DNA from: an uncultured virus (IMG/VR IMGVR_UViG_3300025138_000019)
Taxonomy: Duplodnaviria > Heunggongvirae > Uroviricota > Caudoviricetes
DNA length: 64,000 bases
IMG/VR virus record: IMGVR_UViG_3300025138_000019
Strand: one strand, 5' to 3'
The translations under genes and the position numbers were made by a program. Below the pieces are notes generated by a model. That model searched no databases and was not told the origin of the DNA. It saw only the letters and a program-made list of their open reading frames with translations. Positions 199-20,069 of this stretch are shown here, piece after piece (the stretch's first letter is position 1; each line of letters opens with the position of its first letter).

Positions 199-487
199 AC
201 CGAAACGTAAACCTAAGCGACCCTCCGAGCCTTCTGAACTTCAGTTGGCTGAGTGTGTATGGGAAGACGCAGAAGAGATCGGGGACGTTGGTTGGAACGA
301 CCGGGACGAACTCTTTAAACAGGCAGAGGAACCTTGCCCTATTATGCATACCGTGGGGTATCTAATCTACGAGGGCGACGACCATATATCAATGGTGTCC
401 ACGATCGGCACGGATGAGTGCAGTACAATTGAGAAAATCCCGCGTAGTTTCATAAAAACCCTGATCTATCTCGAACGTCCGGAATAG
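167..487 (+). CDS. hypothetical phage protein
   Basis: 106-aa ORF with GGGAG RBS and TATATA upstream; globular C-half (ECVWEDA...TVGYL...IPR). Confidence 0.7.
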   Translation: MPRTSVSGRTSPKRKPKRPSEPSELQLAECVWEDAEEIGDVGWNDRDELFKQAEEPCPIMHTVGYLIYEGDDHISMVSTIGTDECSTIEKIPRSFIKTLIYLERPE

Positions 488-625
488 GCGGCAACTAAAG
501 CCTACCGGGCTGCCACACCTTACCCCCATTTATTTGGACATTTAAATACCCCCCTTTTAAATGCCCTCTATAAAATAATAGAATATTTCTAAGAACATTA
601 TGTCATTTCCCTACATATTAATGAG

Positions 626-1405
626 ATGCAGATCCCAATACTCGCCCGGTATCTCTCAGCGTCTTTGTTATGGGCCCTACTCTTAGGAAGTTGTACCACT
701 ACGACAACCTTTGAAGTTGCTTCTCCCTCTACAGCTTCACCCCCTACATCTAAGCCTTTTACACTTCCTCAAGATGGTTCATTTTCGTATCATTTGTTTG
801 ATGTCGTACCTTCGTATACATTCGTTGGTGCTATTAAAAACTATGAACATGATTCGTTAATTGGCACAGGCGTATTGATCTCCCCTGATGTTGTTCTCTC
901 TGCGGCTCATGTTGTAGACGATACCTCTATGCACAACCTTGAATGGGTCGAAGTTGATGGTAAGACATCTTGTATTAAAAAAATTGTTTATTATTCTTCT
1001 CTGCTGGATAATAAATGGCATGATATAGCAATTCTTTTTTTAGAATCTCGTTCGGATAAAGTTCCTTGTATAATGTTTGATAATGATACGGATTTCGTAT
1101 ACAAACATATGCCTCTCACTACTGTGGGGCATGGTCATGGACTTCGCCGAAACAGCAATCCCGGTATCTTTAGGTACTACGGGAGACTTGTTCTTTCTCC
1201 AAGATTCATGATCATGCTTCCACTGAGGGACACCGTATGGCATGGTGACTCGGGTGGTGCAATTCTTACTGATGATAATAAGTTAATAGGCATCGTCTCG
1301 CACTATGTTAGTACGAAAGATGGCCGTATATTCGAGAATGTGGGTTCGTCTATTGAATACTATAGAGAATGGATTGAATCACACGTACCCACGCTGAGTG
1401 ATTAG
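626..1405 (+). CDS. trypsin-like (S1) serine protease with predicted lipoprotein signal
   Basis: Catalytic triad motifs LSAAHV, HDIAIL and GDSGG; hydrophobic N-terminus ending LLLGS-C, then a Thr/Ser/Pro-rich linker. Confidence 0.85.
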   Translation: MQIPILARYLSASLLWALLLGSCTTTTTFEVASPSTASPPTSKPFTLPQDGSFSYHLFDVVPSYTFVGAIKNYEHDSLIGTGVLISPDVVLSAAHVVDDTSMHNLEWVEVDGKTSCIKKIVYYSSLLDNKWHDIAILFLESRSDKVPCIMFDNDTDFVYKHMPLTTVGHGHGLRRNSNPGIFRYYGRLVLSPRFMIMLPLRDTVWHGDSGGAILTDDNKLIGIVSHYVSTKDGRIFENVGSSIEYYREWIESHVPTLSD

Positions 1406-1605
1406 ATTCCAAACACTAAACGTATTCTAGACCACAGTCCAGGTCGATCTTCTGGATTGTTTTTGGCACGCTCGGCGCCTCTTTGGACTTCCTTGTCCGT
1501 AAGGAGAATCCAGTAGGACTCATCGTTGTACCGTACCTTGGTAGGCCAGTAGTGAGTCGCTTCTCTCTTTGTCTTGCGTGCTTTGTTTTCTTTTCTGCTT
1601 TCCAT
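1402..1605 (-). CDS. hypothetical protein
   Basis: ATG at 1605 lies just after the stop of the 575-aa ORF; the ORF-track start at 1632 overlaps that gene. Confidence 0.55.
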   Translation of the reverse strand: MESRKENKARKTKREATHYWPTKVRYNDESYWILLTDKEVQRGAERAKNNPEDRPGLWSRIRLVFGI

Positions 1606-1606
1606 G

Positions 1607-3334
1607 TCAACAATCCCACTTTCTGAGTGCAAGTGCCTTACGAGTAGGTCTACCCTTCTCGTCCTTCATTGCGCCTTTCATTCCACCCATGCGGGCGCAG
1701 AATGATTTACGTCTCTTGGCTGCTTTACCACCCTTTGACTTCTTAGCTTGTTCTGATGATACTGGTGCTTTGAGGTCGGAACCGGGGTTCTCTCGTTCGT
1801 AGGACTTTCTGCCCTTTTCGTTGAGTCCGCCTTCTTTGTTCTTACCTGAGCTTTTTTGCCATGCGGCAGATGCTTCACTGACTTCTTTCTTCTTATCGTC
1901 TTTCTTGGGATTCATGAGATCATCATGATTCTTGACGGCGTATGATTCGGCATCCTTCTTATTATCGAATGTCTTTATCTTCTTACCGTTCTGATGATAC
2001 ACACAGAACTTGTTTGGGCCCTCTTTCTTGACATGTGATTTGGGATCCATGGTGTGGTCCTTCTTATCATCATATGCCTTTTCCGAGAAGAATGATTTGA
2101 GAATAGCATCGTCGAGATCGGTTGACTCGTTAGAACTGTTTCCCCAGTTCTTTGCGCCTACTTTTCTGCACTTGACGAGAGCACCCGAAGCGTATGCGGA
2201 AGGCCATACGTCATAGCGTGCCTTCACCTTGTGGTAGCAGGCATCCTTCTCGGCTTCATTGATGTGTTCTACTGATTCGTTCTTTGTCTTCTTGACGCAG
2301 TTTGGATATCGCTTACCGAACATAGTCTTCATGCCCTTCTGCTCATATCCCTTCCAACAGGCTTCATTGATAGTCTCGACTGATTCCTTGGTGACGCTCT
2401 TAATAGTTGCGCCCTTCTTTACCTTCTTGGCGAGTCGCTTGAAATCAACTCCCTTGCGACCCCCACGCTTAGTATCGTACTCAACTGGCTGGGTTGTGCC
2501 TCGGTGCTTCATTACGTTCGCGGAGATGTCCTCACGCACGACTTTACCTGATTTGGTTCCCTTGTTGGGAACAAACTCACCACCGACAAGTTTACTGGTG
2601 GGTTGGTTTGCAAGTTTCTTTGCGATGCTCTTGCTAAACTTCTTTGCCTTTGACTTGTCACGGGTAACAGTCTTTACCTTGTCACCGTCTGTGTCCATCA
2701 CATAGTTTCCATCACTGTGTTGCACCATACGCTCTTGTATGATATCATTGTGGTACTCGTCGTGGTGATCATGATTCTCGTGTACCTCATGAATGTGGAT
2801 AGTCATGTCCTTGGTTGGGATCTCTCGCTCGATACCGTGCTCGAACATGACATCATACCAGTCGATGTCACCATTCTCGTTGGGAGCGGCGTGCTGTGAT
2901 GTGATTGTTCGTCCGTATCCAAATTTGGTATGCTCTACATGTGTGGCACACTTGTGGGTTCCCTTTGGATATTTCTTACCGTGGAGTTTTGTAATCTTCT
3001 TATCTTTTTTCATGGGTGAATCACTTTCGTTAACTTTTTTTACCTCATTCGATACCATCTTCGGTTTGCCTCCCTTTCCTGCACGATCTGCGACAGGATC
3101 TTGAGACTTCTTTCGTCTAACGGCGGACGCGATGGTTTTCTTTCCGCCTTTTGCTCTGAGCTTGGCTGCTTTGTTCTTGGACAGGCACTTAGGTTTTCCT
3201 TCTCCGGGTTCTCTGGCGCATTTTCCAAGACGTTCCCCCTTCGTGTTATACCTATCCCATCCGCCTCCGCCTACTCCACCTTTACCTCCGGTGCCAAACC
3301 AGGCGCGGAGATTCTCTGATATCTTAAACTTCAT
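1607..3334 (-). CDS. modular basic protein, probable capsid-internal (injected) polyprotein
   Basis: Short Lys/Arg-rich modules (ACWKGY, KDACYHKVK...PSAYASG, GGLNEKGR...RRKSFCARM...LRKWDC, recalled as DUF6321-like) separated by hydrophobic-x-Glu sites. Confidence 0.75.
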   Translation of the reverse strand: MKFKISENLRAWFGTGGKGGVGGGGWDRYNTKGERLGKCAREPGEGKPKCLSKNKAAKLRAKGGKKTIASAVRRKKSQDPVADRAGKGGKPKMVSNEVKKVNESDSPMKKDKKITKLHGKKYPKGTHKCATHVEHTKFGYGRTITSQHAAPNENGDIDWYDVMFEHGIEREIPTKDMTIHIHEVHENHDHHDEYHNDIIQERMVQHSDGNYVMDTDGDKVKTVTRDKSKAKKFSKSIAKKLANQPTSKLVGGEFVPNKGTKSGKVVREDISANVMKHRGTTQPVEYDTKRGGRKGVDFKRLAKKVKKGATIKSVTKESVETINEACWKGYEQKGMKTMFGKRYPNCVKKTKNESVEHINEAEKDACYHKVKARYDVWPSAYASGALVKCRKVGAKNWGNSSNESTDLDDAILKSFFSEKAYDDKKDHTMDPKSHVKKEGPNKFCVYHQNGKKIKTFDNKKDAESYAVKNHDDLMNPKKDDKKKEVSEASAAWQKSSGKNKEGGLNEKGRKSYERENPGSDLKAPVSSEQAKKSKGGKAAKRRKSFCARMGGMKGAMKDEKGRPTRKALALRKWDC

Positions 3335-3335
3335 A

Positions 3336-3767
3336 TCAATCTCCGGACCAGTTCTTACCTTTATAACTCTTTACATCTCGCATGATGGCATCTTTAGTGC
3401 GATTGGTTGATTTCATTACTTTAGGAGATCTGCCTGTTTCACTCTGCGTGCTGGTTCTTGTTACTGCTTTTTTAGCAGACTTGTATCTCTCTTTGGCATC
3501 ACCACCACCGGGCTTCTTTCTGTCATAAAATTTCTGTCTGCTATACTCTTTGGCCATCTCACCAGATGGAGACTCTGTTGCAGGGCGTGTACCCATGGAT
3601 CCCATTTTATTCTTTGAGATTTCACCCTCTCGGCGCAATCGTTTTTCGTTTAATTCGTCGGTAAACACACTTACGAGTGCGTCCATGAAGTTTTCATCGA
3701 GGTCACAATCACACGATTTGCTCTGTGTCTCTGCGCCTTCGATTATAAAAGTTTTAAATTTATGCAT
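3336..3767 (-). CDS. basic hypothetical protein with capsid-targeting-like leader
   Basis: N-terminus MHKFKTFIIE resembles the T4 internal-protein leader MKTYQEFIAE; AGGAG RBS; TACATA upstream. Confidence 0.7.
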   Translation of the reverse strand: MHKFKTFIIEGAETQSKSCDCDLDENFMDALVSVFTDELNEKRLRREGEISKNKMGSMGTRPATESPSGEMAKEYSRQKFYDRKKPGGGDAKERYKSAKKAVTRTSTQSETGRSPKVMKSTNRTKDAIMRDVKSYKGKNWSGD

Positions 3768-3912
3768 TTAAGATATCTCCTTGAGGTACTTTATGTATTT
3801 GAATTAATGTCTTAAGGCTTTTGCTAAATAATATGATGCATCAAAATATTTCCCACTATTCTTAAAGTGTCATGGCGTATAGCTGTGGCATTTTGTTTTA
3901 TAGGAGTCTTAA

Positions 3913-4431
3913 ATGGACAGACAAGTTTTACTGCTCAACGCTTCTGAAGAAGCAATTAAAATCATAGACTGGAAGAAAGCAATTTGCCTTTTACTCAAAG
4001 GGAAAGCAACAAAGCCGGTAAACTACAAACAAAACTATGAGATACAATCAGTAAATCACACATACCCACTGCCATCTGTTATAATGCTTTCGAATTATGT
4101 CCATATTCCAATGCAGGAACACATTCCAACGAGAAGAAATGTGTTCAAACGAGACAACTGGATCTGTCAATATTGTGGAATCAAATCAAAGAATCCAAAG
4201 ACACTCACAATAGATCATGTGATGCCAAAATCGCGTGGTGGTGATTCTAGTTGGACAAATCTTGTTACCGCATGTCCATCATGTAACAGGAAAAAAGCAA
4301 ACAACAAACCATCTGAGTGTGGGATGCCCCTGAAAAGGAAACCAACAAAACCATACTACTTGGACTTGCAATTAAACTCGATATCGAGTATGATTAAAGA
4401 TCAATGGGATTATTGGTTAAAAATCGCATAA
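3913..4431 (+). CDS. HNH endonuclease (McrA-like)
   Basis: RRNVFKRDNWICQYCG...LTIDHVMPKSRGG...WTNLVTACPSCNRKK; AGGAG RBS. Confidence 0.92.
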   Translation: MDRQVLLLNASEEAIKIIDWKKAICLLLKGKATKPVNYKQNYEIQSVNHTYPLPSVIMLSNYVHIPMQEHIPTRRNVFKRDNWICQYCGIKSKNPKTLTIDHVMPKSRGGDSSWTNLVTACPSCNRKKANNKPSECGMPLKRKPTKPYYLDLQLNSISSMIKDQWDYWLKIA

Positions 4432-4462
4432 ACTTACATATATACCATAGCAGGAGAATATT

Positions 4463-4762
4463 ATGCCAATATATGATTATCGTTGTGAAAAATGTGAAGA
4501 GTTGTGGGAAGAAAGTCTTCCCATGTCTAAAATGAACAGTCCCACCAAAAAAGCATGTCCACACTGTGAAAAGAGTGGTTGTGTGGTGAAACATGTTGGT
4601 GGGTTTCCTGGCGTTGCAACTGATCAAACACTAACCGCAGATAAAAAGTCTGGTGGACAGTGGAGTGAGTTGATGAGTAGAATGACAAATGTTGTCGGTA
4701 GAGATTACAAACACAACCTAGACAAAGCCTCCGAGAGAACAGGAACTCGTTGGAAGGGTTGA
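4463..4762 (+). CDS. FmdB-family zinc-ribbon protein
   Basis: MPIYDYRCEKC...CPHC; AGGAG RBS. Confidence 0.85.
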   Translation: MPIYDYRCEKCEELWEESLPMSKMNSPTKKACPHCEKSGCVVKHVGGFPGVATDQTLTADKKSGGQWSELMSRMTNVVGRDYKHNLDKASERTGTRWKG

Positions 4763-4767
4763 ATTAT

Positions 4768-4775
4768 TATAAATA
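4768..4775 (+). promoter_or_regulatory. T4-type late promoter
   Basis: Exact TATAAATA 22 nt upstream of the ATG at 4798. Confidence 0.7.
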
Positions 4776-4797
4776 GGTCAGTAACTGGAGATACGTT

Positions 4798-5004
4798 ATG
4801 CGAATGTCAGACTTTTTCAATTTTGTAGGAACAAACAATCAACAATCAACACCTTCGTCAGATGGTGAAGGTGTACAAAAGTTGCAAGATGGCAGTAGTT
4901 GGAAATATATCAGAGATGGTGATGTTTACGAAAACACAGTATCTGGTTCTAGAATCAGTCCGATTCAATTAGACAATTTAAAAATTAGTTTCGAAAGACA
5001 CTGA
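4798..5004 (+). CDS. hypothetical protein
   Basis: 68-aa ORF with GGAG RBS and a late promoter upstream. Confidence 0.65.
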   Translation: MRMSDFFNFVGTNNQQSTPSSDGEGVQKLQDGSSWKYIRDGDVYENTVSGSRISPIQLDNLKISFERH

Positions 5005-5027
5005 TTCGGTGATATTCCATAGTGAAC

Positions 5028-5051
5028 GCTACACTAAATAGTGTAGCTTTT
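5028..5051 (+). terminator. intrinsic terminator-like hairpin containing a TAAATA late-promoter core
   Basis: GCTACACT-AAAT-AGTGTAGC perfect 8-bp stem followed by TTTT. Confidence 0.5.
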
Positions 5052-5070
5052 ATTATATGATTGGACTATA

Positions 5071-8000
5071 ATGTACGCAAGAAGAGGATGCTGTTGTGGT
5101 AAATCGATATACCCTTGGTGCTTTTACCGAGGATCATGTGACAACATGTATGATGTATATCTTTTACCTGAATCAATCGCAAGAACAATACAAGAAGAAC
5201 CCGGTGACCCTAGAGATAAGTTAGACTTCCTCTATGGTGGAACTGATCACTCCAAAGTTATAAAATTTAGATGGAGTGCTAATCCTACGTTCAATGCAAA
5301 GATATCAGATAATCTTCTCAATGGTTCGGTGGTGCATCAACCCGCTGTAGAATATACACTCTATTCTTATCACGAAGATGTTGGAAACCGTCCTGAAGTA
5401 ACACAAGAATGCACACAGCTCTGTGAAGATGCGGGAAGAGTACCGCCTATTATAGGTGGAGGACCCGACTTCCTCATATATGATACTTGTTATGAAAGTT
5501 TCCTGAAGACATACGATGACTCGATGGCGAATGGTAGATCAGTCGGTGATGTGTTGGGTGAACACAGCTATATCAGAAATGTAAGTGATTGGTCTGAGAG
5601 AAACTATTTAACCCCTGGCACTCGGTCACAAAAAAGAGTGGCTAAACATACAATAGAGAATATATTCAGGGGATTAACAACAGAATACCCTGCTGGTTAT
5701 CAATTCGATGGAGAGCGGGGCAATCGACCGGCCCCAATTACAGCCGGTACATTTGATACCAGATGGGAAAAGCAGACTAGCTTTATTCCAGAGAGCACAC
5801 AGCACACCAAAGAGAAAGGTGCGTGGGATGTTGAAATGGATCCCATATTCTGTATGTACGGCGAAGACTCCATATACAGAGAGAAAATAGCATATTTCGA
5901 AACTCCTCGAGGGGACCTTTCTCAAGAAGAATACGAAGCCGTAATCCGAGGGATCACGACTGAAACTAATGACTGGATTGATGCTGATGAGGTATACAGG
6001 AACGTACCCGCCACGAGGTCCGCAAATTATCCGAACTCGCGAGATGAGCCAGGATATCTCAAATATACGTACTTTAATGGTGGGTATAGATCTAAAAATT
6101 TCTCAAATGAGTTCTTCCGAACGCAAGGTGCGGATGTAGAAGGCGTTTGTGCTGGTGATGGAACTATTCCTGTAGGATATAACATATCCCCAGAAAAAGG
6201 AGGAGATGTTTCTCCTTTGTATGGAATATACTATGGACAAAATCAAACCGTAGGGGCTTGGCATTCTTGGTTGGGTGGTTTAGAATATCTCGCAGCAGAT
6301 GCTGAGGTGTTTAATCCAGACATAGTTACTTGGGATTATAAATTCCCACAGTATCAGGTCGCAAAATACACAACACCAGGCAGTGCTTGTTTATGCGAGA
6401 GCAGCTCTCCGTCCTGTACTCCAGTCAGGGAATTTATAGAAACTGGATTCTGTACCGCGCAGAATAGAATATCAACTTATTCTTACGAGTTCGGAGGTCC
6501 TGTACCAGACGACGAGTGGCCGGCTGGACCGCAGCAACCAGTTTACGGACATCCATTCGAGAGAGTTGCGTTCGATAAGGAGTTCTGGCCGGGTTATGTT
6601 GTTGGTAACGGAACAAATATTAGAACAAACACTCCCAACAGAAACAGTTATTTCAAAGATTTGCGAAACGGTATAGGAACCATAACAAATGCAGATTCAA
6701 TGCCTGCAATACCTTCTACTTCTCAGGGCCCTTTCTTTGATGTCAATAGTCGTGTCATCGATAACGGGACTTTCGCTTATTCTGGATTGGAAGCCCCGGC
6801 AGAACCAGTTTACGGAGGGTTCGATGCCCCAGGCGCAGGCAATGATACAATCACCTCATATGTTTACACACTTGAGCAGAAACAAAGAACATACAGATAC
6901 GTTGATACCATAACTGATGATGGTGAATTTATAACTGTTTTAGACACTGGAATAGAATTTCAAGGTAATTGGTCAAGACAGCAGGGTGGTAGTGGGTTGT
7001 ATTTCTATAGCAATGTCCACTACAACATCGACACCGATGGAATTCCACCAAGCATCCCAAACACCCAACCGGGGAAAATACAATATGATATAACAGAGGC
7101 GGGTGCATCTATATCATGTGGTCCAATATTCAATGAGGGAAATAATTCCCGAACTCTTGGTGGTAGGCCACTATTTGGTCCTTATGAGTTCAATAGCGGG
7201 TATAACAATGGAGGGATTCAAGGATCTGGACAAGATCTCGATGAATATCCATACTGGAGAATAATCGACGGAGTTTCAAATGTATACACCTTAGATGAAC
7301 TCGGTATTGATAATCCTCAGTATGAAGTATTACTAAAAGATTCCTATACCTCAGTGAATTGGGTTCCTGGCATGACATATGGAGCAAAAGTAATAGTTGA
7401 TACTGATATTACTATTGGTCCTGGCATGCCAAGGAAGGTGCCAGGCGAAGACGGAATTTATAGTGCATTTTATATGGATCAGTTGATCATACCAGAAGGT
7501 AAAGAAGATAAATCATTATGGAGCATGGATAACACCGACATATTCTCACCGGGTATGTGGAATGGTTTGTACTGTGGTATTGGTATCAAAGGACACTTAA
7601 AACCAGCGGCATCTTTGTTGTCACAAGGAAAAATACAGAACTTCAATGGTGGTGCAGCATGTACCTGTCCGGGTCAAGTCGTCTGCTGTCCTTGTGATGG
7701 ATTCGAGAGCGGCGGTTGCTCCGTCTATAATGTTGGTGGTCAAGAGTGTACACCCAGAATATGCAACCACAACCCAGATAAACAAATCGCTGTTCTCCCG
7801 CGACTTTGGATTCCTACTTCTATCCTAGAAAATTGGAACTGGGTGCAGAATGTCAGCTACCAGATCGGAGACGGCGATGATTTCTCACAAATTGATAAAA
7901 CGCAGAGGAGGACTACCACCGTTCTTGATACAAGAACCGTTGGTGGAAACGAATATGCTATGGTAGAAACCAAGTTTGCTACGTCCACTACAGTAACTAC

Positions 8001-9858
8001 TTCGGAGTCCGGAGACATTGGAAATCCGAGCATAGACTGTTATCAGTGGAGCGGACCAAACGGTGAGGCATATGAAACTTGTTACACTGTATGGGAAGAT
8101 GGTGAGCCTCCAAATGTTGAAACAAATACATGCACACAGAGCGGGTCTACAATAATAGGAGGATTTAGCATCCTTCCGACCTATATGGGGATCCATGAGT
8201 GGATAACTGACCTCGCTGCGAACTCTGGCCCAGGTCAGTTACATGAGCATCCCTACAGAAAAATTACAATTCCTCTGCGATGGATGGATCTTGGATTCCA
8301 TGAGACTCCATTCAAAGACACTGCAAATCTATACATCAGCGACAAAGAAGAACAAAAATGTATGGAGAGCAGAGCCTACGCTGAACAAAATAAAGAAACA
8401 GCAGAGGGAATACAAGATAACAAAATATTTGAATATGCAGGAGTTACAGGTGCTTCCTGTGGTGTGGTTTGTCCTGAAAATATTAAATTCTATGATTTCC
8501 CATACAAAGGTAATGTTGGATTGTATGGAACAAAGAAATATGAATTCAAACCAGAATACCAAAACTATCTAGATTGGTTAATAACAAACGAGGACATAAA
8601 AGATACATTCAAAGAGTGGGCTGCGGCAACCGTTGCAAGACAGAGAACTGTGAGTAAACTTTTCTACTGGCCCAAAGATTTTGCTGACAGAATATCCACA
8701 TCACCAGCTTCTCATATATTTGGATTGAACACGGGGATGACCGAATGGCGAAATGGCTGGAGTGAGGGTGATCAAGTTCGAGGATTCAGAGAACCCGGAG
8801 CGGAAGTAGATGATGAGTATGAACCCATAAATTCATTTTTCTTTCAACATGCCAGAGGTGCAACTATTGATGTGCCACTTATAGGATCTGTTTCTAACAT
8901 GTATATCACATGGGAAGAGAAACCACAAATAGTTCAGGCGTGTGAACTGCAAGATAACTCAGGATTAGGTTCTGAGGCTGGGGATAGTCTTGTTCCACTC
9001 TTTGTCCGAAGAGAAAGAACATCAGGAAACACTTCCGGTCTTCCTTATCCAAATGTGATAGGGAATTTACCAAGTGGGGTAGCCAGTGATGATCAAGTTT
9101 ATAGAAACTTTATTCTAGGACGAAAAACAGAATTCACTGATCCAAATGAATATGTCCCATACCCAGAAGAAGGGTTCTCTGATGTATACAGAAACGAATA
9201 CCACGGTTTGTGGGCAAACTGGGGATATGCAGGAAAAATTAAAGATGATCCAAGAGAGTACAGATTTGATAGAAACTATCCAAAAGATCTAAGAAGAATC
9301 CCTCGTTTTGATCAGTATGGTGAGATGGAGTTAAATATGCGTAACCGAGACTCAGCAATTGGATTTGATGAGTATAGGTACAGAAACTATAGTCAATTAC
9401 CAGAGTTGTCGGAACGAGAAAAAATATTAAACAAGAACGTAAATAAGTGGTGTGCTTTGTTTTATGACGAAGGCGCTCTTGCGGATGATATCACATGGAC
9501 TTACCCAGAGGATGCGTGTCCGTCCGGAGCTACTCTGGGATTCGAACAGTATGAGAGGGCGTTTAATAATGGTGTTGCTTATCACTGGGCATTGGCAAGA
9601 ATGAGCAACAGAAACGATGTACCAATGGGTAGGAATTGGCAGAAATCCAAGATCTTCTCCAGAGGCTGCCCAGAAGATATCAGAAACATCCGACAATTCA
9701 TTTACCAAAACACCTTCTACGGACAACCAGAAAGTGTTCGTGGGTGGACTGCGAGTGATTATCCTTGGTTAACCGGATTCACTATGGGAATAGATCCCGA
9801 CATAAACTGGTGTTCTACTACGCCAAAAGCAGATCCAGATTTTTATGAGGACAGCTAA
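5071..9858 (+). CDS. large Cys/Gly/Tyr-rich hypothetical protein, probably virion-associated
   Basis: 1595-aa uninterrupted ORF; N-terminal RRGCCCG and internal CTCPGQVVCCPCDG; no catalytic motif recognised. Confidence 0.8.
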   Translation: MYARRGCCCGKSIYPWCFYRGSCDNMYDVYLLPESIARTIQEEPGDPRDKLDFLYGGTDHSKVIKFRWSANPTFNAKISDNLLNGSVVHQPAVEYTLYSYHEDVGNRPEVTQECTQLCEDAGRVPPIIGGGPDFLIYDTCYESFLKTYDDSMANGRSVGDVLGEHSYIRNVSDWSERNYLTPGTRSQKRVAKHTIENIFRGLTTEYPAGYQFDGERGNRPAPITAGTFDTRWEKQTSFIPESTQHTKEKGAWDVEMDPIFCMYGEDSIYREKIAYFETPRGDLSQEEYEAVIRGITTETNDWIDADEVYRNVPATRSANYPNSRDEPGYLKYTYFNGGYRSKNFSNEFFRTQGADVEGVCAGDGTIPVGYNISPEKGGDVSPLYGIYYGQNQTVGAWHSWLGGLEYLAADAEVFNPDIVTWDYKFPQYQVAKYTTPGSACLCESSSPSCTPVREFIETGFCTAQNRISTYSYEFGGPVPDDEWPAGPQQPVYGHPFERVAFDKEFWPGYVVGNGTNIRTNTPNRNSYFKDLRNGIGTITNADSMPAIPSTSQGPFFDVNSRVIDNGTFAYSGLEAPAEPVYGGFDAPGAGNDTITSYVYTLEQKQRTYRYVDTITDDGEFITVLDTGIEFQGNWSRQQGGSGLYFYSNVHYNIDTDGIPPSIPNTQPGKIQYDITEAGASISCGPIFNEGNNSRTLGGRPLFGPYEFNSGYNNGGIQGSGQDLDEYPYWRIIDGVSNVYTLDELGIDNPQYEVLLKDSYTSVNWVPGMTYGAKVIVDTDITIGPGMPRKVPGEDGIYSAFYMDQLIIPEGKEDKSLWSMDNTDIFSPGMWNGLYCGIGIKGHLKPAASLLSQGKIQNFNGGAACTCPGQVVCCPCDGFESGGCSVYNVGGQECTPRICNHNPDKQIAVLPRLWIPTSILENWNWVQNVSYQIGDGDDFSQIDKTQRRTTTVLDTRTVGGNEYAMVETKFATSTTVTTSESGDIGNPSIDCYQWSGPNGEAYETCYTVWEDGEPPNVETNTCTQSGSTIIGGFSILPTYMGIHEWITDLAANSGPGQLHEHPYRKITIPLRWMDLGFHETPFKDTANLYISDKEEQKCMESRAYAEQNKETAEGIQDNKIFEYAGVTGASCGVVCPENIKFYDFPYKGNVGLYGTKKYEFKPEYQNYLDWLITNEDIKDTFKEWAAATVARQRTVSKLFYWPKDFADRISTSPASHIFGLNTGMTEWRNGWSEGDQVRGFREPGAEVDDEYEPINSFFFQHARGATIDVPLIGSVSNMYITWEEKPQIVQACELQDNSGLGSEAGDSLVPLFVRRERTSGNTSGLPYPNVIGNLPSGVASDDQVYRNFILGRKTEFTDPNEYVPYPEEGFSDVYRNEYHGLWANWGYAGKIKDDPREYRFDRNYPKDLRRIPRFDQYGEMELNMRNRDSAIGFDEYRYRNYSQLPELSEREKILNKNVNKWCALFYDEGALADDITWTYPEDACPSGATLGFEQYERAFNNGVAYHWALARMSNRNDVPMGRNWQKSKIFSRGCPEDIRNIRQFIYQNTFYGQPESVRGWTASDYPWLTGFTMGIDPDINWCSTTPKADPDFYEDS

Positions 9859-15136: not shown

Positions 15137-17320
15137 TCACTTCGGAGATTCTTTTTTTATAGATTTTACTCTATCGTAATTTTTTTTAAAAAGTTTATTC
15201 AATTCCGCGTCAACTTCCATAAAAGGAGTGTCTTCTATGTATTTTTTTAGAAGATCGTAGGTTCCGATGTCTCCGGCACCACCCTCTTCTTTGAGTCTTT
15301 TGCTATGATCTTGAGTTTCGCCTGGTTTATGTTTGTTGTCAGATCTGTTTGATGCGGCACTTCTTTTTCTTAAGTTGGTAGATGAATTGTTCATGGGATT
15401 TCCATCCTTGTGATCAATATCAACCCCATCACCTTTACTCACTACACCCTTACGAATAGCTCTTCTTCTATTTGTTGTTCGTTTGCCTCTAGCTTGAATT
15501 GCTTTTTTGCTGCTATGATGTCTATCATATTCTTTTCTGTAATCTCTCTCATACTCTTCGTTAGTAGTGAGCTGAGGGATTTCATCATTCTCTGCTTCAT
15601 AGTATTGTGTGTCCTTCTCTACAGGAACATAAAATACTCTATCTCTAGTTTGAACTTTCGTATACTCACCAGACTCATTTGTGTTATAATTAGCTAAGTT
15701 AAGTTGATTGGAACTTATTTCATTTACGGTCAAACCTAAAAATTCAAACATTCGGAATGGATCATCAGAGATATCAGATGTCGCTTGGTTGAAATAAGTT
15801 TCTGTGTCTGAGTCACTCTCTGCCAGTAAATCAGTAAAGTGATGACATATGTCTTCTTTCATATCATCAGATACACTCATAGCAGCCCAGAAACTTCCGG
15901 GTGTTCTAGATTCTCGTATGTCATCGTCAATACCAAATCTTATGTTTACCTTTACATCATTGATGATTTTGTTAATATAAGTTTCGTTTAATTTTGATAA
16001 ATGTGCGCTTGTTCCATCTTTATTTGCCGATAATATATGAGTAACCGAAGAAGGATTGTCAAAACCAAATTTGTCTTGTCCAGTTAATTCTTCGTAAACT
16101 AAAGCTTTCTTGAACTCCTCGTTAGTTGCAAATATATCTTCGAGATGGGACTTTAGTTCTGTGTGTAAATTCTCTACATTTTCCTTAGAGAACCTATTTT
16201 TATCAATTTGGATTTGGTTATTGAATCTCACTTCAGGCTTAGTGTTTATAACATAATCTCTCATTTTTTCTGATACAGCTTTTGTCTGTTTTTTGGTAGC
16301 AGGGTTCAATAAGATATTTTCTTTTAGTTTCAATGCAGTGGAAGAAAACAAGGCTAAGGCTTCGCCTTCTTTTTCCAGTAAGATTGGAGTTTCTCCAATC
16401 CTTACCGAGGCCCGGACAACTTCCTCTTGTGAATCACCCTCGAATACTATCTGAGACTTGGATGAAGGATCATCACCACCCAATGATGCCCACTCTGGAG
16501 AGATTGATCCTGTTTCTTTGTTGACTGGCTTAGCCACCCAACTTCCTCTTAAATCATCCTGTATTTGCTGAACAACTCGAATAGCAGATGGTTCTAATGT
16601 TTCGCTCTCTTCCATGTTGTTCTTAAGAGATGGAGACATCCCATCACCTATCTTGCCTCCGTTCACAGAGTTGAATGTGCTCGCTATGCTTGAAGCCATG
16701 TCTTCTGATTCATGATCCCAATCAGGATAAACTGATCCTGCTGATGTTATTTCTTTTCCGTTTGATGGAATTCTTTTTTGTTCCTGAGAATCCATAATGT
16801 CATCAGCAACTTCGCCTTCTTGTGTGGCGACTTCGGGAGCTGATGGATCTTCTGTTTTCTCTACATTACCCAGAAGTCTGTTGGATGTTTTTGTTGCTTC
16901 GAAATCAGGTCTTCTGGAAATTTCTCTTGCTGCGTTTGGAGTTACTTCTGGTTTGTTTCTCTGACCAGGGACTCGTCCATATAGGAGTTCATGTTTATTT
17001 GGTTCGTAATCAGTTTTTGGAATCAATCTAGTTTTGTTGTCATCCAAAGTTTTTACAACAATAACCCCCTTCCAAGGGTTTGTCTTTTCTTGTTGCTCTG
17101 ATGCTTTTCTCTCTACACGCTTTCTGGCGCTATCAACGTCTTTTTTGTCACCACCAACAGCTCTAGCATCTTCTTTTGCTTTTTCTTTATCTAGAGCTTC
17201 TTTATCAGCAAATGATTTCGATATTGGGTTCGCTTCGTCTAACTGCAAAAATTCTAAAAATTCCATCGGATCAAACCAATCTGCTTCAAATATGGGTTTT
17301 TTTGTTGAATAATCAGACAT
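15137..17320 (-). CDS. large modular protein with C-terminal HNH-like nuclease module
   Basis: RDYRKEY...GDGVDIDHKDGNPMNNSSTNLR...NRS; EEGGAGDIGT...KYIEDTP module; TATAAATA upstream. Confidence 0.75.
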   Translation of the reverse strand: MSDYSTKKPIFEADWFDPMEFLEFLQLDEANPISKSFADKEALDKEKAKEDARAVGGDKKDVDSARKRVERKASEQQEKTNPWKGVIVVKTLDDNKTRLIPKTDYEPNKHELLYGRVPGQRNKPEVTPNAAREISRRPDFEATKTSNRLLGNVEKTEDPSAPEVATQEGEVADDIMDSQEQKRIPSNGKEITSAGSVYPDWDHESEDMASSIASTFNSVNGGKIGDGMSPSLKNNMEESETLEPSAIRVVQQIQDDLRGSWVAKPVNKETGSISPEWASLGGDDPSSKSQIVFEGDSQEEVVRASVRIGETPILLEKEGEALALFSSTALKLKENILLNPATKKQTKAVSEKMRDYVINTKPEVRFNNQIQIDKNRFSKENVENLHTELKSHLEDIFATNEEFKKALVYEELTGQDKFGFDNPSSVTHILSANKDGTSAHLSKLNETYINKIINDVKVNIRFGIDDDIRESRTPGSFWAAMSVSDDMKEDICHHFTDLLAESDSDTETYFNQATSDISDDPFRMFEFLGLTVNEISSNQLNLANYNTNESGEYTKVQTRDRVFYVPVEKDTQYYEAENDEIPQLTTNEEYERDYRKEYDRHHSSKKAIQARGKRTTNRRRAIRKGVVSKGDGVDIDHKDGNPMNNSSTNLRKRSAASNRSDNKHKPGETQDHSKRLKEEGGAGDIGTYDLLKKYIEDTPFMEVDAELNKLFKKNYDRVKSIKKESPK

Positions 17321-17342
17321 TCTTTACTCCAAAGACTACTTC

Positions 17343-17350
17343 TATTTATA
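17343..17350 (-). promoter_or_regulatory. T4-type late promoter
   Basis: TATAAATA on the minus strand, overlapping the U-tract of the upstream terminator. Confidence 0.7.
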
Positions 17351-17381
17351 AAAAAAAGAATGGGCCCCGTAAACGGGGCCC
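17350..17381 (-). terminator. rho-independent terminator
   Basis: GGGCCCCGT-TT-ACGGGGCCC stem followed by ATTC and an 8-T run on the minus strand. Confidence 0.85.
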
Positions 17382-17386
17382 AAACA

Positions 17387-17466
17387 CTGGCTTTATGCGA
17401 GTAAATAGGGGAAAGTGCTGGATCACCTCCTGACTGTGTGCAAAAGATACTTGGCAGTAAAGCCAG
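17387..17466. ncRNA. putative structured RNA element containing a 15-nt match to the 16S rRNA 3' tail
   Basis: Outer 9-bp inverted repeat CTGGCTTTA/TAAAGCCAG encloses GCTGGATCACCTCCT (17417-17431); non-coding gap. Confidence 0.45.
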
Positions 17467-17475
17467 ATTTATCGT

Positions 17476-17607
17476 TTACGGTTTAGTCCAAGGAAGGTAA
17501 CCCTTCACCCATGTCCAAAAAGAAGGTCCTATCCAAGCTCCGGCGGCGAATAATAATACGCTATAAAACACAGTTCCTAAAATTCCGCTAAATGGCTCTG
17601 GTGACAT
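17476..17607 (-). CDS. 43-aa membrane peptide (below ORF-track cutoff)
   Basis: AAGGAG RBS then MSPEPFSGILGTVFYSVLLFAAGAWIGPSFWTWVKGYLPWTKP*. Confidence 0.75.
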   Translation of the reverse strand: MSPEPFSGILGTVFYSVLLFAAGAWIGPSFWTWVKGYLPWTKP

Positions 17608-17610
17608 AAT

Positions 17611-17961
17611 TCACTCCTTTTCGTCTAGGCTTTTATTTTCAAAAGCTTTTGAAACGTCACTATTATATATGTCCTTTTTGAAGCCAAACGTGCTTTTTTT
17701 CTTTCTTTTTTTCGCTGGCTTTTCCTTCGTTTTCTCTGAACTAGCTAAATCATTGATTAGTGGCAGATCACCTTCTTTTTCGATAAAAGAAAGCTCAGTT
17801 TCGTTTAAACTTCTTTTGTCCCATATCCACTTACCTCTATAATTAAAAAAAGTTCCGCCATATTCACGTTCAAATCTACCTCTGTACTTTTTACCCACTT
17901 TTTCATCGTTGCAAAGTGCATAAGTTCTGGTGATTGAATCGTTGACTTCGTTTAATCTCAT
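17611..17961 (-). CDS. hypothetical protein
   Basis: AAGGAG RBS; CATAAATA at 17988-17995. Confidence 0.7.
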   Translation of the reverse strand: MRLNEVNDSITRTYALCNDEKVGKKYRGRFEREYGGTFFNYRGKWIWDKRSLNETELSFIEKEGDLPLINDLASSEKTKEKPAKKRKKKSTFGFKKDIYNSDVSKAFENKSLDEKE

Positions 17962-17990
17962 TGTTGTGCTCCTTAAAGATACATTACTAT

Positions 17991-18551
17991 TTATGAATTC
18001 TGTGAAATTATGTCATAGTAAAGACCTTTACAAACATAATATGAATCAACTATGTCTGATATAGGGTTTCCTATACCTTTTCTATTTGGAGTTATCAGGT
18101 TGAATAAATTGTGTTTTGTTTCCTTGACAAAAGCGTCATGCATCGCTGTCTTATCAGCATTTCCCTTTCCGGTAGCTAGTTTTTTAACCACAGACGGAGC
18201 AATCACATCAATTGGCACAGACTGTTGAAAAAACTTATACTTAAGTAACCCTGTATTCTCTGCTATATTGAAAACCCTACCCTTTGCGGCATATGCATAG
18301 CCCTCAATAGCAACTTGTTCACACCCCTGACACATTTCAACTGCCCACTCTGATATGGTATCATACCTTTCACAATCATGATTGTATGTCTCAAATAATT
18401 TCCCATGAATTCTAGACAAAAATGTTTTTGCTAGGTTCTTTGTATCTGTCAGATAATAAAAAGAACAATTATTGAAAGTAAAACCTTCATCTGAATTAAA
18501 AACACAAATTGCTGGACCATTTAAACTGTAGTCAATACCGGCTATTATCAT
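17991..18551 (-). CDS. RuvC-like Holliday junction resolvase / RNase H-fold nuclease
   Basis: IAGIDYSL...VAIEGY...PSVVKKLATGKGNADK...DIVDSY. Confidence 0.8.
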   Translation of the reverse strand: MIIAGIDYSLNGPAICVFNSDEGFTFNNCSFYYLTDTKNLAKTFLSRIHGKLFETYNHDCERYDTISEWAVEMCQGCEQVAIEGYAYAAKGRVFNIAENTGLLKYKFFQQSVPIDVIAPSVVKKLATGKGNADKTAMHDAFVKETKHNLFNLITPNRKGIGNPISDIVDSYYVCKGLYYDIISQNS

Positions 18552-18574: not shown

Positions 18575-18610
18575 GAGAAAACCCCTCACCAATAAAGGTA
18601 AAGGGTTCTC
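18575..18610 (-). terminator. terminator-like hairpin after porin
   Basis: Minus strand GAGAACCCTTTACC-TTTATT-GGTGAGGGGTTTTCTC pairs with G-U; immediately followed by CATAAATA. Confidence 0.6.
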
Positions 18611-18687
18611 TTATTCGCGGGAAAAGGGTGATCCAGCTCTTTTGCACTCCGCGATTTAGTTATCTTATATTTATAAGATATTTTTTT

Positions 18688-19845
18688 TCAGAAACTGACC
18701 TGAATAACACTACGAACGACATACTGTCCGTCGTCGGCACTGGAACGCCAACCTGTGTTATCTGTGTTGAAACCAGAGTCAATACCTTCGAAAGCATATC
18801 CAACAGTGTTGGTCCATACGATATTCTCGTGGATGGTGTAGTTACAACCAATAGTTGCAATATTCAGCTTGTCGCTGACACCACCAAGAGCACCATACTC
18901 ATACTGAACAAAACCCTGAAGGTTGTCCAGACACTGATATGCAAGAGTACCAACGATGGAATAATTATCCCAATCCTCAGTTTCGTTGTTTGCAATCCAT
19001 GCAGCGTTGAAATCGAGCTTACCACTAGTGTATTCGAGATCAACAGTATAACTGCTGTAATCCGTTACATTATTATTGTTGTATGCATAACCAGCACCGA
19101 TGGAAAATCCACCACCGAGTCCGACAGATGCGCGAGCACCAACTGCATAATCATTATCTGCGTCAACACCATTAGTGTCACCAAAACCATTGGTGTAAAA
19201 TGCAGAAAGTTCAACAACATCAGATACAATGAAGTCCGAAAGTTCTACACCCTGACCTCGTCCCTGTCCGTATGTAAGGGCAGAAACGCTATAGTTGTTG
19301 GTGATAAGAGAACGAGGATCAGTGACGAAACCACTATAGAAAGCAGGAACGAACTGACCAACTCGAACATTGGTAACACCAAACGCTCTAAAATCAACAC
19401 GAGCGTCGAGAAGATCAAACGTGGAAGTTACATCACTCCACTGTCCACTCAGGAGGTAACTTGCATCCTTACCAAAGTCACCAGATAGAATTAGACGAGC
19501 ACGATCAACTGAGAATCCATACTCAGCATCGAGATCTGCACCGCCATTGTAGCTGTATCCTGTCTGGATAAATCCACCCAGATCCAACGAAAAGCCTTCA
19601 GTCGAAGGACTAAGACTAATTCGAGTGGAAGCATCCGAACGAACTGCTTCACCCATCTCCATACGATCCATTCGCTGCTGCATCATATCGGGTGTGATCA
19701 TACCTTGATCAACCATACGATTCATTCGCTGCTGCATCATCTCGGGGGTGACATTGTTGTCACCCATCATGTCTGAATCATCTGCACTTGCAACTCCGCA
19801 AGTGCATAGGGCGAGACATGTCGCGCCAATTTTAATAATACTCAT
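18688..19845 (-). CDS. outer-membrane beta-barrel porin (OprO/OprP-like)
   Basis: AGGAG RBS before ATG 19845; signal peptide ending VASA; GFIQTGYSY...FSVDRARL...LLDARV...VGQF strands; C-terminal Phe (IQVSF). Confidence 0.85.
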   Translation of the reverse strand: MSIIKIGATCLALCTCGVASADDSDMMGDNNVTPEMMQQRMNRMVDQGMITPDMMQQRMDRMEMGEAVRSDASTRISLSPSTEGFSLDLGGFIQTGYSYNGGADLDAEYGFSVDRARLILSGDFGKDASYLLSGQWSDVTSTFDLLDARVDFRAFGVTNVRVGQFVPAFYSGFVTDPRSLITNNYSVSALTYGQGRGQGVELSDFIVSDVVELSAFYTNGFGDTNGVDADNDYAVGARASVGLGGGFSIGAGYAYNNNNVTDYSSYTVDLEYTSGKLDFNAAWIANNETEDWDNYSIVGTLAYQCLDNLQGFVQYEYGALGGVSDKLNIATIGCNYTIHENIVWTNTVGYAFEGIDSGFNTDNTGWRSSADDGQYVVRSVIQVSF

Positions 19846-19868
19846 AAGTATTCTCCTGTTATGGTTTA

Positions 19869-20069
19869 TCAACCGCCAATGTTCCAAGCAGTGACTGCGG
19901 TCCAGACAGCCGAAATGGCATCTCGGAACCAAAGAACTCCGTCCCACGCGAAGGGAACAAGAGCAAGACTAACCAGAGTTGATCGGGTTACTCCAAATTT
20001 TCCAAAAAACTTACCTACTACATCATTACCACAACCCGAAACCGGGCAATCTTTAGTGTTTGCACTCAT
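19869..20069 (-). CDS. small membrane-associated protein
   Basis: AAGGAG RBS; CPVSGC, then a hydrophobic/amphipathic C-half; first gene after the sigma70 promoter. Confidence 0.7.
   Translation of the reverse strand: MSANTKDCPVSGCGNDVVGKFFGKFGVTRSTLVSLALVPFAWDGVLWFRDAISAVWTAVTAWNIGG

Follow-up and report, generated by a model that had tools for sequence, protein, structure and literature searches.

What purpose could a perfect complement to the 3' end of bacterial 16S rRNA serve where it lies behind a gene, with no start codon after it? The question is posed by positions 17387-17466 of a 64,000-nucleotide stretch of DNA (the window; virus record IMGVR_UViG_3300025138_000019 of IMG/VR), which comes from an uncultured marine T4-like phage and in which an earlier note, made from the letters alone, had pointed to an orphan, extended Shine-Dalgarno (SD) sequence enclosed by an inverted repeat. 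The element is real: it is a structured SD-like sequence, extended and orphan, located in a 3' untranslated region (3' UTR), neither a chance match nor a relic, and it represents a conserved, so far unannotated RNA family of uncultured marine T4-like phages. Its best reading, to which we assign a probability of roughly 0.4, is a 3'-UTR module that would dock the 30S ribosomal subunit by way of the anti-SD tail of 16S rRNA.

The match to the 16S tail is exact at 17417-17431, as had been claimed, the plus strand reading GCTGGATCACCTCCT and the minus strand AGGAGGTGATCCAGC; an extra plus-strand match to 16S noted upstream (TAGGGGAA) is present in the window but is not kept in relatives. The inverted repeat is there as described, with nine perfect base pairs (CTGGCTTTA at 17387-17395 and TAAAGCCAG at 17458-17466) that are prolonged inwards by three extra pairs (17454-17456 with 17396-17398) beyond a bulged C at 17457. 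The location given by the earlier note, a 3' UTR just before a strong terminator, is also correct for the minus strand, with the stop codon of a 43-aa open reading frame (ORF), p43, upstream and a GC-rich hairpin with T8 downstream; the core of the element is positioned 44 nt past this stop codon and 35 nt ahead of the terminator. From the p43 stop the minus strand continues with CUGGCUUUA, C, UGC, CAAGUAUC, UUUUGCACACAG, UC, AGGAGGUGAUCCAGC, ACUUUCCCCUAUUUACUC, GCA and UAAAGCCAG, and further 3' with the terminator hairpin, T8, TATAAATA, and then the SD sequence and ATG (17320) of a 727-aa gene. No ATG, GTG or TTG occurs 4-14 nt past AGGAGG in the window, in agreement with the missing start codon that had been reported. 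The features of this region are as follows.

17476-17607, minus strand: p43, a small hydrophobic (membrane-type) 43-aa ORF, recognized as an ORF and from its translation, with the element in its 3' UTR.
17454-17466, minus strand: 5' strand of the enclosing helix P1 (CUGGCUUUA, bulged C, UGC), from the sequence, the fold and P1 covariation in the family.
17434-17445, minus strand: conserved single-stranded block UUUUGCACACAG, 5' of the core, from the alignment and a predicted unpaired probability of 0.7-0.85.
17417-17431, minus strand: core AGGAGGUGAUCCAGC, the exact 15-nt complement of the bacterial 16S rRNA 3' tail, by sequence match.
17403-17416, minus strand: pyrimidine-rich 3' block ACUUUCCCCUAUUU, partner strand in the candidate hairpin P3, from folds and weak covariation.
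17387-17398, minus strand: 3' strand of P1 (GCA, UAAAGCCAG), from the sequence, the fold and covariation.
17350-17382, minus strand: intrinsic terminator, a 9-bp stem with eight GC pairs (17382-17361) and T8 (17357-17350), also found by a terminator scan.
17343-17350, minus strand: TATAAATA, a T4-type late-promoter motif ahead of the next gene; the same motif follows terminators in relatives.
15137-17320, minus strand: downstream gene, whose 727-aa product has an HNH-like region at its C-terminus; relatives have varying genes at this position.

Chance is a poor explanation for the match: by our own arithmetic, 128 kb of sequence, both strands counted, should contain an exact 15-mer about 1e-4 times, and with up to three mismatches the window contains five matches against 1.04 expected, a count reached by none of 100 shuffles. 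The element also exceeds every ribosome-binding site (RBS) of the window, for upstream of 75 ORF starts the best complement to the same tail is 7 nt exact, compared with 15 nt in the element, and the best predicted duplex with the tail is -14.2 kcal/mol, compared with -32.0 kcal/mol. The earlier note would have given up its reading for a translated ORF that uses the 15-mer as an ordinary RBS; a start codon (ATG, GTG or TTG) 4-14 nt after the SD hexamer is missing in 24 of 27 distinct elements, and the three exceptions open ORFs of only 5, 12 and 14 codons. The conserved blocks are, moreover, shifted by 1 nt between relatives, which breaks any reading frame. The internal substitutions seen in the core are all A-to-G changes opposite a U of 16S rRNA (AGGGGG, GGUGGUCC, CCGA), and an additional change is a terminal G-to-A opposite 16S position 1527. 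These core substitutions preserve pairing with 16S rRNA. Among bacteria, position 1527 is U or C (PMC5329695). The 16S tail is the only known match to the core, which is contained in the widely used universal 16S reverse primer UN1541r, a sequence that 738 papers mention along with '16S', so that these phage genomes would carry a perfect partial priming site.

Conservation in related phages, the check proposed in the earlier note, extends to both the 15-mer and the enclosing stem. The first homolog, locus L006, has the element after a relative of p43 that is 58% identical, with a 17-bp perfect stem of unrelated sequence around GAGGAGGUGGUCCAG and then a terminator. An alignment of p43 sequences, used as the query against viral contigs, found 121 relatives, and among the best 80, which were analysed, the core lies within 120 nt past the p43 stop in 12 loci (12 of 57 distinct downstream sequences), the remaining p43 loci mostly running directly into a terminator or the next gene. 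With a 22-nt pattern (ACACRG, two free bases, AGGRGGTGATCCAG), marine metagenomes yielded 36 matches, all of them homologous and in 30 distinct versions, and bacterial genomes yielded eight, none with the phage layout: four Ms_IGR-5 small RNAs (sRNAs), three GC-rich coding-like stretches and one Saccharibacteria contig. A scan for CACRGNNAGGRGGTGATCC gave 20 matches, of which six are homologous, all six found before. A scan of viral contigs for GAGGAGGTGRTCCAG gave at least 118 stretches that a crude script classed as coding-like (E-E-V-I-Q reading) or as lying before start codons, and the stem-plus-terminator layout is absent among those listed. The pattern ATAGAGN{0,1}GTGATCCA gave at least 117 stretches, two of which are homologs (in the related record G004 and in locus L421), the rest looking coding-like; L455, flagged in the same scan, was rejected as a homolog.

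Scans with neighbouring proteins added little: the porin-like protein encoded near the element led to just two near-identical loci, and relatives of the 727-aa protein mostly have the HNH end in common, a homologous intergenic region being present in L006 only. L006 encodes (254-5299) a 1681-aa distant relative of the 727-aa protein in which it is fused with a nucleotidyltransferase-like N-terminus. Cultured phages gave no match to the region by megablast or blastn and none to p43 by tblastn, and p43 has no Pfam or PHROG match; its family pattern is FSxILGTVFYS...AGALIG.PLW.W...LPWNK (loci L207-L286). The Rfam search that the earlier note had called for assigns the element to no family: at gathering thresholds Rfam 15 has 0 matches in the whole 64-kb window, and a permissive scan of 17300-17650 (E up to 10) gave nine sub-threshold matches (best 19.8 bits against a threshold of 50), namely seven over the terminator hairpin, one upstream at 17617-17650, and L20_leader across element and terminator (17.7 bits against a threshold of 58.7).

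The anatomy of the family was drawn from 27 distinct elements that are 74-112 nt long. The stop codon of a tiny ORF is followed by a spacer of 4-14 nt (measured by eye), the P1 5' strand, an optional hairpin, UUUUGCACACAG, two free bases, the core, a pyrimidine block (ACCCUAUU or a variant), an optional hairpin and the P1 3' strand; an intrinsic terminator follows 31-50 nt past the core, starting 6-15 nt beyond P1, and then TATAAATA and a variable next gene. The tiny ORF is usually p43, with a different ORF of 19-23 aa in three metagenome loci, and the downstream genes differ among relatives and have no common function. A hairpin with a T-run comes after the element in 15 of 15 representatives examined. 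The core, AGGRGGUGRUCCAG, with a length of 14-15 nt in the family, is nearly invariant, its G, GGUG and UCC being fixed in all 27 elements, and in an alignment of 26 sequences (A3) ACAC and the next G of the UUUUGCACACAG block are invariant. Many terminators of the family (L258, L335, L339, L341 and others) have a GGAGAG or GGGAGG 5' arm, and their 3' arm with its U-tail thus resembles an anti-SD sequence (CCUCC and then U's), which may be a matter of composition only.

P1 is a helix kept by compensatory changes, built from at least eight unrelated stem sequences. When the P1 flanks of 15 representatives are paired in all combinations, cognate strands reach a mean of -22.7 kcal/mol and non-cognate strands -11.8 +/- 5.0 kcal/mol; the cognate partner ranks 1-3 of 15 by row and 1-4 by column, the better-ranked non-cognate partners being, with few exceptions, close relatives or G-rich strands. 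In an alignment of 22 distinct elements to a covariance model (R1) built from 18 sequences, all 13 P1 pairs changed on both sides and 93% of P1 cells are paired. All five measures of the whole structure beat 500 of 500 shuffles in this alignment, which is fitted to the model and includes related sequences that inflate the shuffle test; in a control with partners slid by 1-3 columns, 38-52% of cells are paired, as against 85% observed for the whole structure. RNAalifold was uninformative on plain MAFFT alignments, in which the stems are misaligned. The stems contain eight G-U cells on the minus (SD-like) strand as against four C-A cells. This wobble bias (8 versus 4) favours the minus strand, to which the terminator's T-run, the ORF upstream and the late-promoter motif likewise belong. 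An anti-SD mimic on the plus strand, the alternative offered in the earlier note, is therefore disfavoured for the copy at 17387-17466, while the orphan, extended, structured SD-like 3'-UTR element stands, so that the note's interpretation is supported in part. The 151-nt region as a whole folds better than shuffles on either strand (z = -3.6 for minus, -3.2 for plus), which is largely the terminator's share.

Inside P1 the picture is less uniform. A hairpin, P3, which joins the first half of the core to the pyrimidine block, is seen in most single-sequence folds; it pairs CACUUUC with GGAGGUG in the window and CCUAUUU with NNAGG in relatives. The GGAGGTG-ATCCAG-CACTTTC fold proposed in the earlier note is accordingly predicted in the window, but its register differs between subfamilies, and covariation of P3 is weak (71.7% of cells paired, one of seven pairs changed on both sides); the P3 variants of L341 and of G003 copy 2 look compensatory by eye. 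Among the 27 elements, the predicted unpaired probability is 0.7-0.9 for CACACA and CCAGCA, and intermediate for GGUGAU. A 5'-UTR/3'-UTR interaction was inspected by eye and dropped.

A second, diverged copy of the element lies about 18.6 kb into the window. When related records were searched with R1, G003 (142 kb) and G004 (62 kb) each gave, at a distance of 9-10 kb from the main copy, one further match that is partial, so that these two genomes have two copies each, and the window has one R1 match and one diverged copy. The second copy is found at the same site, between a porin-like and a RuvC-like gene and on the strand opposite to both, in the window, G003, G004, L083, L085 and L421. Its features in the window are as follows.

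18615-18654, plus strand: second copy, with the stem UCGCGG/CCGCGA (18615-18620 and 18649-18654), the hairpin AAAAGGGU/GCUCUUUU and the loop GAUCCA.
18662-18688, plus strand: AU-rich, terminator-like hairpin with T8 after the second copy, from sequence and fold; it has too few GC pairs for the terminator scan.
18580-18607, minus strand: GC-rich hairpin, probably the terminator of the porin-like gene transcript, from folds of both strands.

The second-copy core reads AAAGGGUGAUCCAGC in the window (18623-18637, plus strand), the second copy reads CUCUUGCACACGGAUAGAGGGUGAUCCAGUCCCUC in G003 and G004, and all copies share GGUGAUCCAG(C), which in the second copy is placed in the hairpin loop. A small ORF, MPVINITRKSVHYKIKNIKIVTNY, precedes the second copy on the SD-like strand; it has seven synonymous and five nonsynonymous codon differences among 25 between G003 and G004, and in L421 it lacks one codon, with the frame kept. 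The hairpin at 18580-18607 has two minus-strand G-U pairs that are C-A mismatches on the plus strand. The porin-like gene transcript, if read through to this terminator, would bear the 16S-tail-like strand of the second copy, and with this opposite orientation the idea of an anti-SD mimic takes a form there that it does not have at the first copy.

Some observations concern the genes around the second copy. The porin-like gene (18688-19947, minus strand) encodes 419 aa with weak Porin_4 and Porin_O_P matches, of which Porin_O_P only passes the Pfam cut-off, and it has relatives in L083, L084 and G003. A basic, conserved ORF of 23-24 aa (MPVINITRKS...) is antisense between the porin-like and RuvC-like genes in L346 (G003), L347 (G004) and L421, with a late-promoter-like ATAAATA motif and an SD sequence upstream.

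The absence of any transcript, which the earlier note had named as a finding against its reading, is not what marine RNA libraries indicate. Part of 17200-17800 is present in ten RNA-library runs, and contigs from four runs of four studies, within 16900-18100, cover 17387-17648, 17391-17635, 17408-17648 and 17489-17639, with three more pieces further upstream in the same contig set; two contigs begin at 17648. The contigs end at the base of P1, short of the terminator, and none in the four runs covers 16900-17350. They fit a short RNA, consisting of p43 and the element, whose abundance exceeds that of the next gene, which is a hint only, because RNA contigs carry no strand, RNA libraries may contain DNA (a caution that also counts against docking as set out below) and uncovered parts do not amount to silence.

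A core that stays fixed while both surrounding helices change suggests a partner outside the element. Such an external partner, the 16S tail as the only known match, the nature of the core substitutions and the variation at position 1527 together favour docking of the 30S subunit. The core would base-pair with the 16S rRNA 3' tail through GGUGAUCC, the bases on which docking would depend, and a 30S subunit would be held on an RNA that offers it no start codon. P1 and the local hairpin may present or mask the core, and a ribosome terminating at the nearby p43 stop would open the base of P1. Two consequences can be imagined, both speculative: the very short transcript would be held and protected, with ribosomes kept close, or some 30S subunits would be titrated if the RNA is abundant. 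It is possible, though doubtful on present sequence comparisons, that a folded 3'-UTR RNA capturing the host's 30S anti-SD tail without initiation is a prokaryotic counterpart of the 3' translation elements with rRNA complementarity in eukaryotic RNA viruses, or else an early-expressed sponge, and that it may cooperate with the 16S-tail mimic in the porin-like 3' UTR.

Several points weigh against docking. Complementarity was scored against the general bacterial 16S tail, from which the tail of the host may differ. The complementarity enters nucleotides that are paired in helix 45 of mature 16S rRNA, and it stops short of the free U's at the very end. In the predicted folds most of the first AGG of the core is paired (unpaired probability 0.13-0.30), and access to it would therefore need strand displacement. 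Across both copies the best-kept part is GGUGAUCCAG and not GGAGG, and second copies lose one or two pairs to 16S in their GGAGG part. The phage's own genes use SD sites, which would make a pure sponge costly to the phage too. An alternative helix (B) between the core and the stop-codon region, which in the window has 16 pairs with the last p43 codons and is striking in unconstrained folds, would also occupy the core; it is not adopted here, its energy being -16.9 kcal/mol as against -14.4 +/- 3.4 kcal/mol for 44 p43 loci that lack the element, and it stands out in one subfamily only (-17 to -23 kcal/mol).

Other explanations must be weighed against docking. The element may be an RBS-mimicking operator or decoy for a protein (a RegA/RegB-type repressor or endoribonuclease, S1, or bS21), with the 16S match as a by-product. 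In each of the window's two copies a local hairpin does join the purine-rich half of the core to a pyrimidine-rich strand, the conserved single-stranded CA-rich block adjoins the core, and there is a likeness to the SD:anti-SD-mimic region of OLE RNA, which is reported to bind bS21 (PMC12054373); but the hairpin differs in register between subfamilies and covaries weakly, no S21 gene (PF01165) was found in G001, G003 or G004, and there is no RNA-binding regulator among the Pfam and PHROG scan results of the window, which leaves this explanation unlikely. Somewhat less likely again is a pairing between the copies, in which the SD-like loop of copy 1 would bind the 16S-tail-like strand in the 3' UTR of the porin-like transcript, as an sRNA and its target or as a kissing pair. 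Sequence sharing within a genome does exceed the part that 16S explains (both G003 copies have GGGUGAUCCAGUCC; both window copies have GGUGAUCCAGC, with one differing base, and CUUU), pairing counted by eye comes to 17 pairs in G003, 14 in G004 and 11 plus 4 in the window, and the porin-sense strand looks functional at copy 2, where it carries the G-U pairs of the terminator. Both copies are, however, present in three genomes only, concerted evolution or recent duplication would explain the shared flanks equally well, a real-looking small ORF before copy 2 on the SD-like strand repeats the layout of copy 1, and L335-type elements are found in yet another context.

It is improbable that the element is an ordinary or conditional RBS, or a recent relic of one, serving the next gene by translational coupling. 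The case for this is L242, where the core after p43 is followed, without stem or terminator, by the in-frame ATG of a nucleotidyltransferase-like gene 12 nt past AGGAGG, this gene being homologous to the one downstream of the element in several relatives. Elsewhere a start codon is missing (24 of 27 elements), a terminator, a late-promoter motif and a separate SD sequence intervene between the core and the next gene, and that gene varies among relatives; nor would a relic remain invariant while P1 is replaced by at least eight unrelated sequences. A ligand-binding or structural RNA of riboswitch type, with the terminator as expression platform and an incidental 16S match, would account for the closing helix, the conserved junction nucleotides, the optional hairpins and a terminator 6-15 nt after P1, and yet it is, if anything, slightly more improbable: that 15 nt should by accident complement exactly the most conserved RNA tail of bacteria is very improbable, inspection by eye showed no alternative pairing of the P1 3' strand with the terminator, Rfam has no match, and the downstream genes have no common function. 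Least probable, and very much so, is a repeat acting at the DNA level, such as a site for recombination, homing or protein binding that happens to lie between genes in either orientation. In its favour, each genome has two copies, which in the window are on opposite strands with respect to the genes beside them, and HNH endonuclease genes are nearby; but the compensatory changes include G-U pairs with the sense-strand bias given above, both copies come after a small ORF encoded on their own strand and before a terminator with a T-run, and all 16 other occurrences of the 9-mer GGTGRTCCA that were examined (G003 and G004; 13 stretches) are within open reading frames. A dispersed intergenic repeat (of the repetitive extragenic palindromic type, or resembling a miniature inverted-repeat transposable element) was rejected, as this would require many copies and two per genome were found.

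Among known systems, the closest in function to a docking element may be STAB-SD of the Bacillus thuringiensis cry3A mRNA, an orphan SD sequence that binds the 30S subunit (PMC4113751). STAB-SD is likewise SD-like, complementary to the 16S 3' end and without initiation, and is held to act by 30S binding, but it is short, is found close to the 5' end of its Gram-positive mRNA and blocks the 5'-3' exonuclease RNase J1, whereas the phage element has 15 nt in a covarying fold of about 80-110 nt in the 3' UTR, before a terminator. The host of the phages that bear the element is probably Gram-negative, given the porin-like gene that they carry. The extended SD of L242 has the same core and the same upstream gene but is an ordinary RBS followed by a start codon and an ORF, in contrast to the 24 of 27 elements that have no start codon and have an enclosing stem and a terminator. 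Certain plant RNA viruses have a structured 3' cap-independent translation element with complementarity to 18S rRNA, the barley yellow dwarf virus (BYDV)-like translation element (BTE). The BTE resembles the phage element as a structured viral 3'-UTR element with a conserved complement to the small-subunit rRNA near its 3' end, and differs from it in being eukaryotic and in using initiation factors and a 5'-3' kissing loop.

Rfam family RF02471 (Ms_IGR-5, of Actinobacteria) has a consensus that starts with ACACA, a few bases and AGGAGGUGRUCC, but the phage element does not match it even at E up to 10, and the rest of the RNA, the GC content and the context are unrelated; the shared word probably reflects the seeding of the search. 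Ms_IGR-5 is described as functionally uncharacterised. In Actinomycetota metagenome-assembled genomes (L468, L470, L472, L474) it has the extended SD at its start, followed by a small frame (...EVA.R stop) that looks conserved by eye, and the supposed sRNA may thus be a leader that contains a tiny ORF. The icaR 3' UTR of Staphylococcus aureus reportedly has an anti-SD-like motif that pairs with the SD of its own mRNA, the reverse of the phage 3' UTR, which holds the SD-like strand. Both have in common that a 3' UTR bears a motif related to a ribosome-binding site (PMC3868564 for icaR). OLE RNA (PMC12054373) has in P6 an SD-like strand paired to a pyrimidine-rich strand within one non-coding RNA, as the phage element does, but it is an RNA of about 600 nt from Bacillota in which the conserved strand is the anti-SD match; in the phage element no clear conservation is seen for the strand with which the core pairs, and no link to S21 was found in three phage records.

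Elsewhere, the window encodes a family-B DNA polymerase whose best identity, 53.7%, is to that of a Synechococcus myophage, and it also encodes a DnaB-like helicase, a RecA/UvsX-like protein, ThyX, a class II ribonucleotide reductase and a RuvC-like resolvase, with no tRNA genes in the 64 kb. Genes for sugar nucleotides and glycans fill about 24 kb of the minus strand at 40190-63854 (among them NeuB, a CMP-sugar cytidylyltransferase, a UDP-GlcNAc 2-epimerase, DegT aminotransferases, an epimerase/dehydratase, many glycosyltransferases and methyltransferases), which looks like a nonulosonic-acid or polysaccharide pathway. A 1595-aa ORF on the plus strand (5071-9858) has no Pfam or PHROG match.

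The element adds an abundant unannotated RNA family to marine viromes and metatranscriptomes. It bears on the stability and translation of transcripts with very short ORFs, and on whether phages tune the availability of ribosomes by RNA instead of protein. Should the element indeed dock the 30S subunit, no structured 3'-UTR module that binds ribosomes would have been described before it in phages or bacteria.

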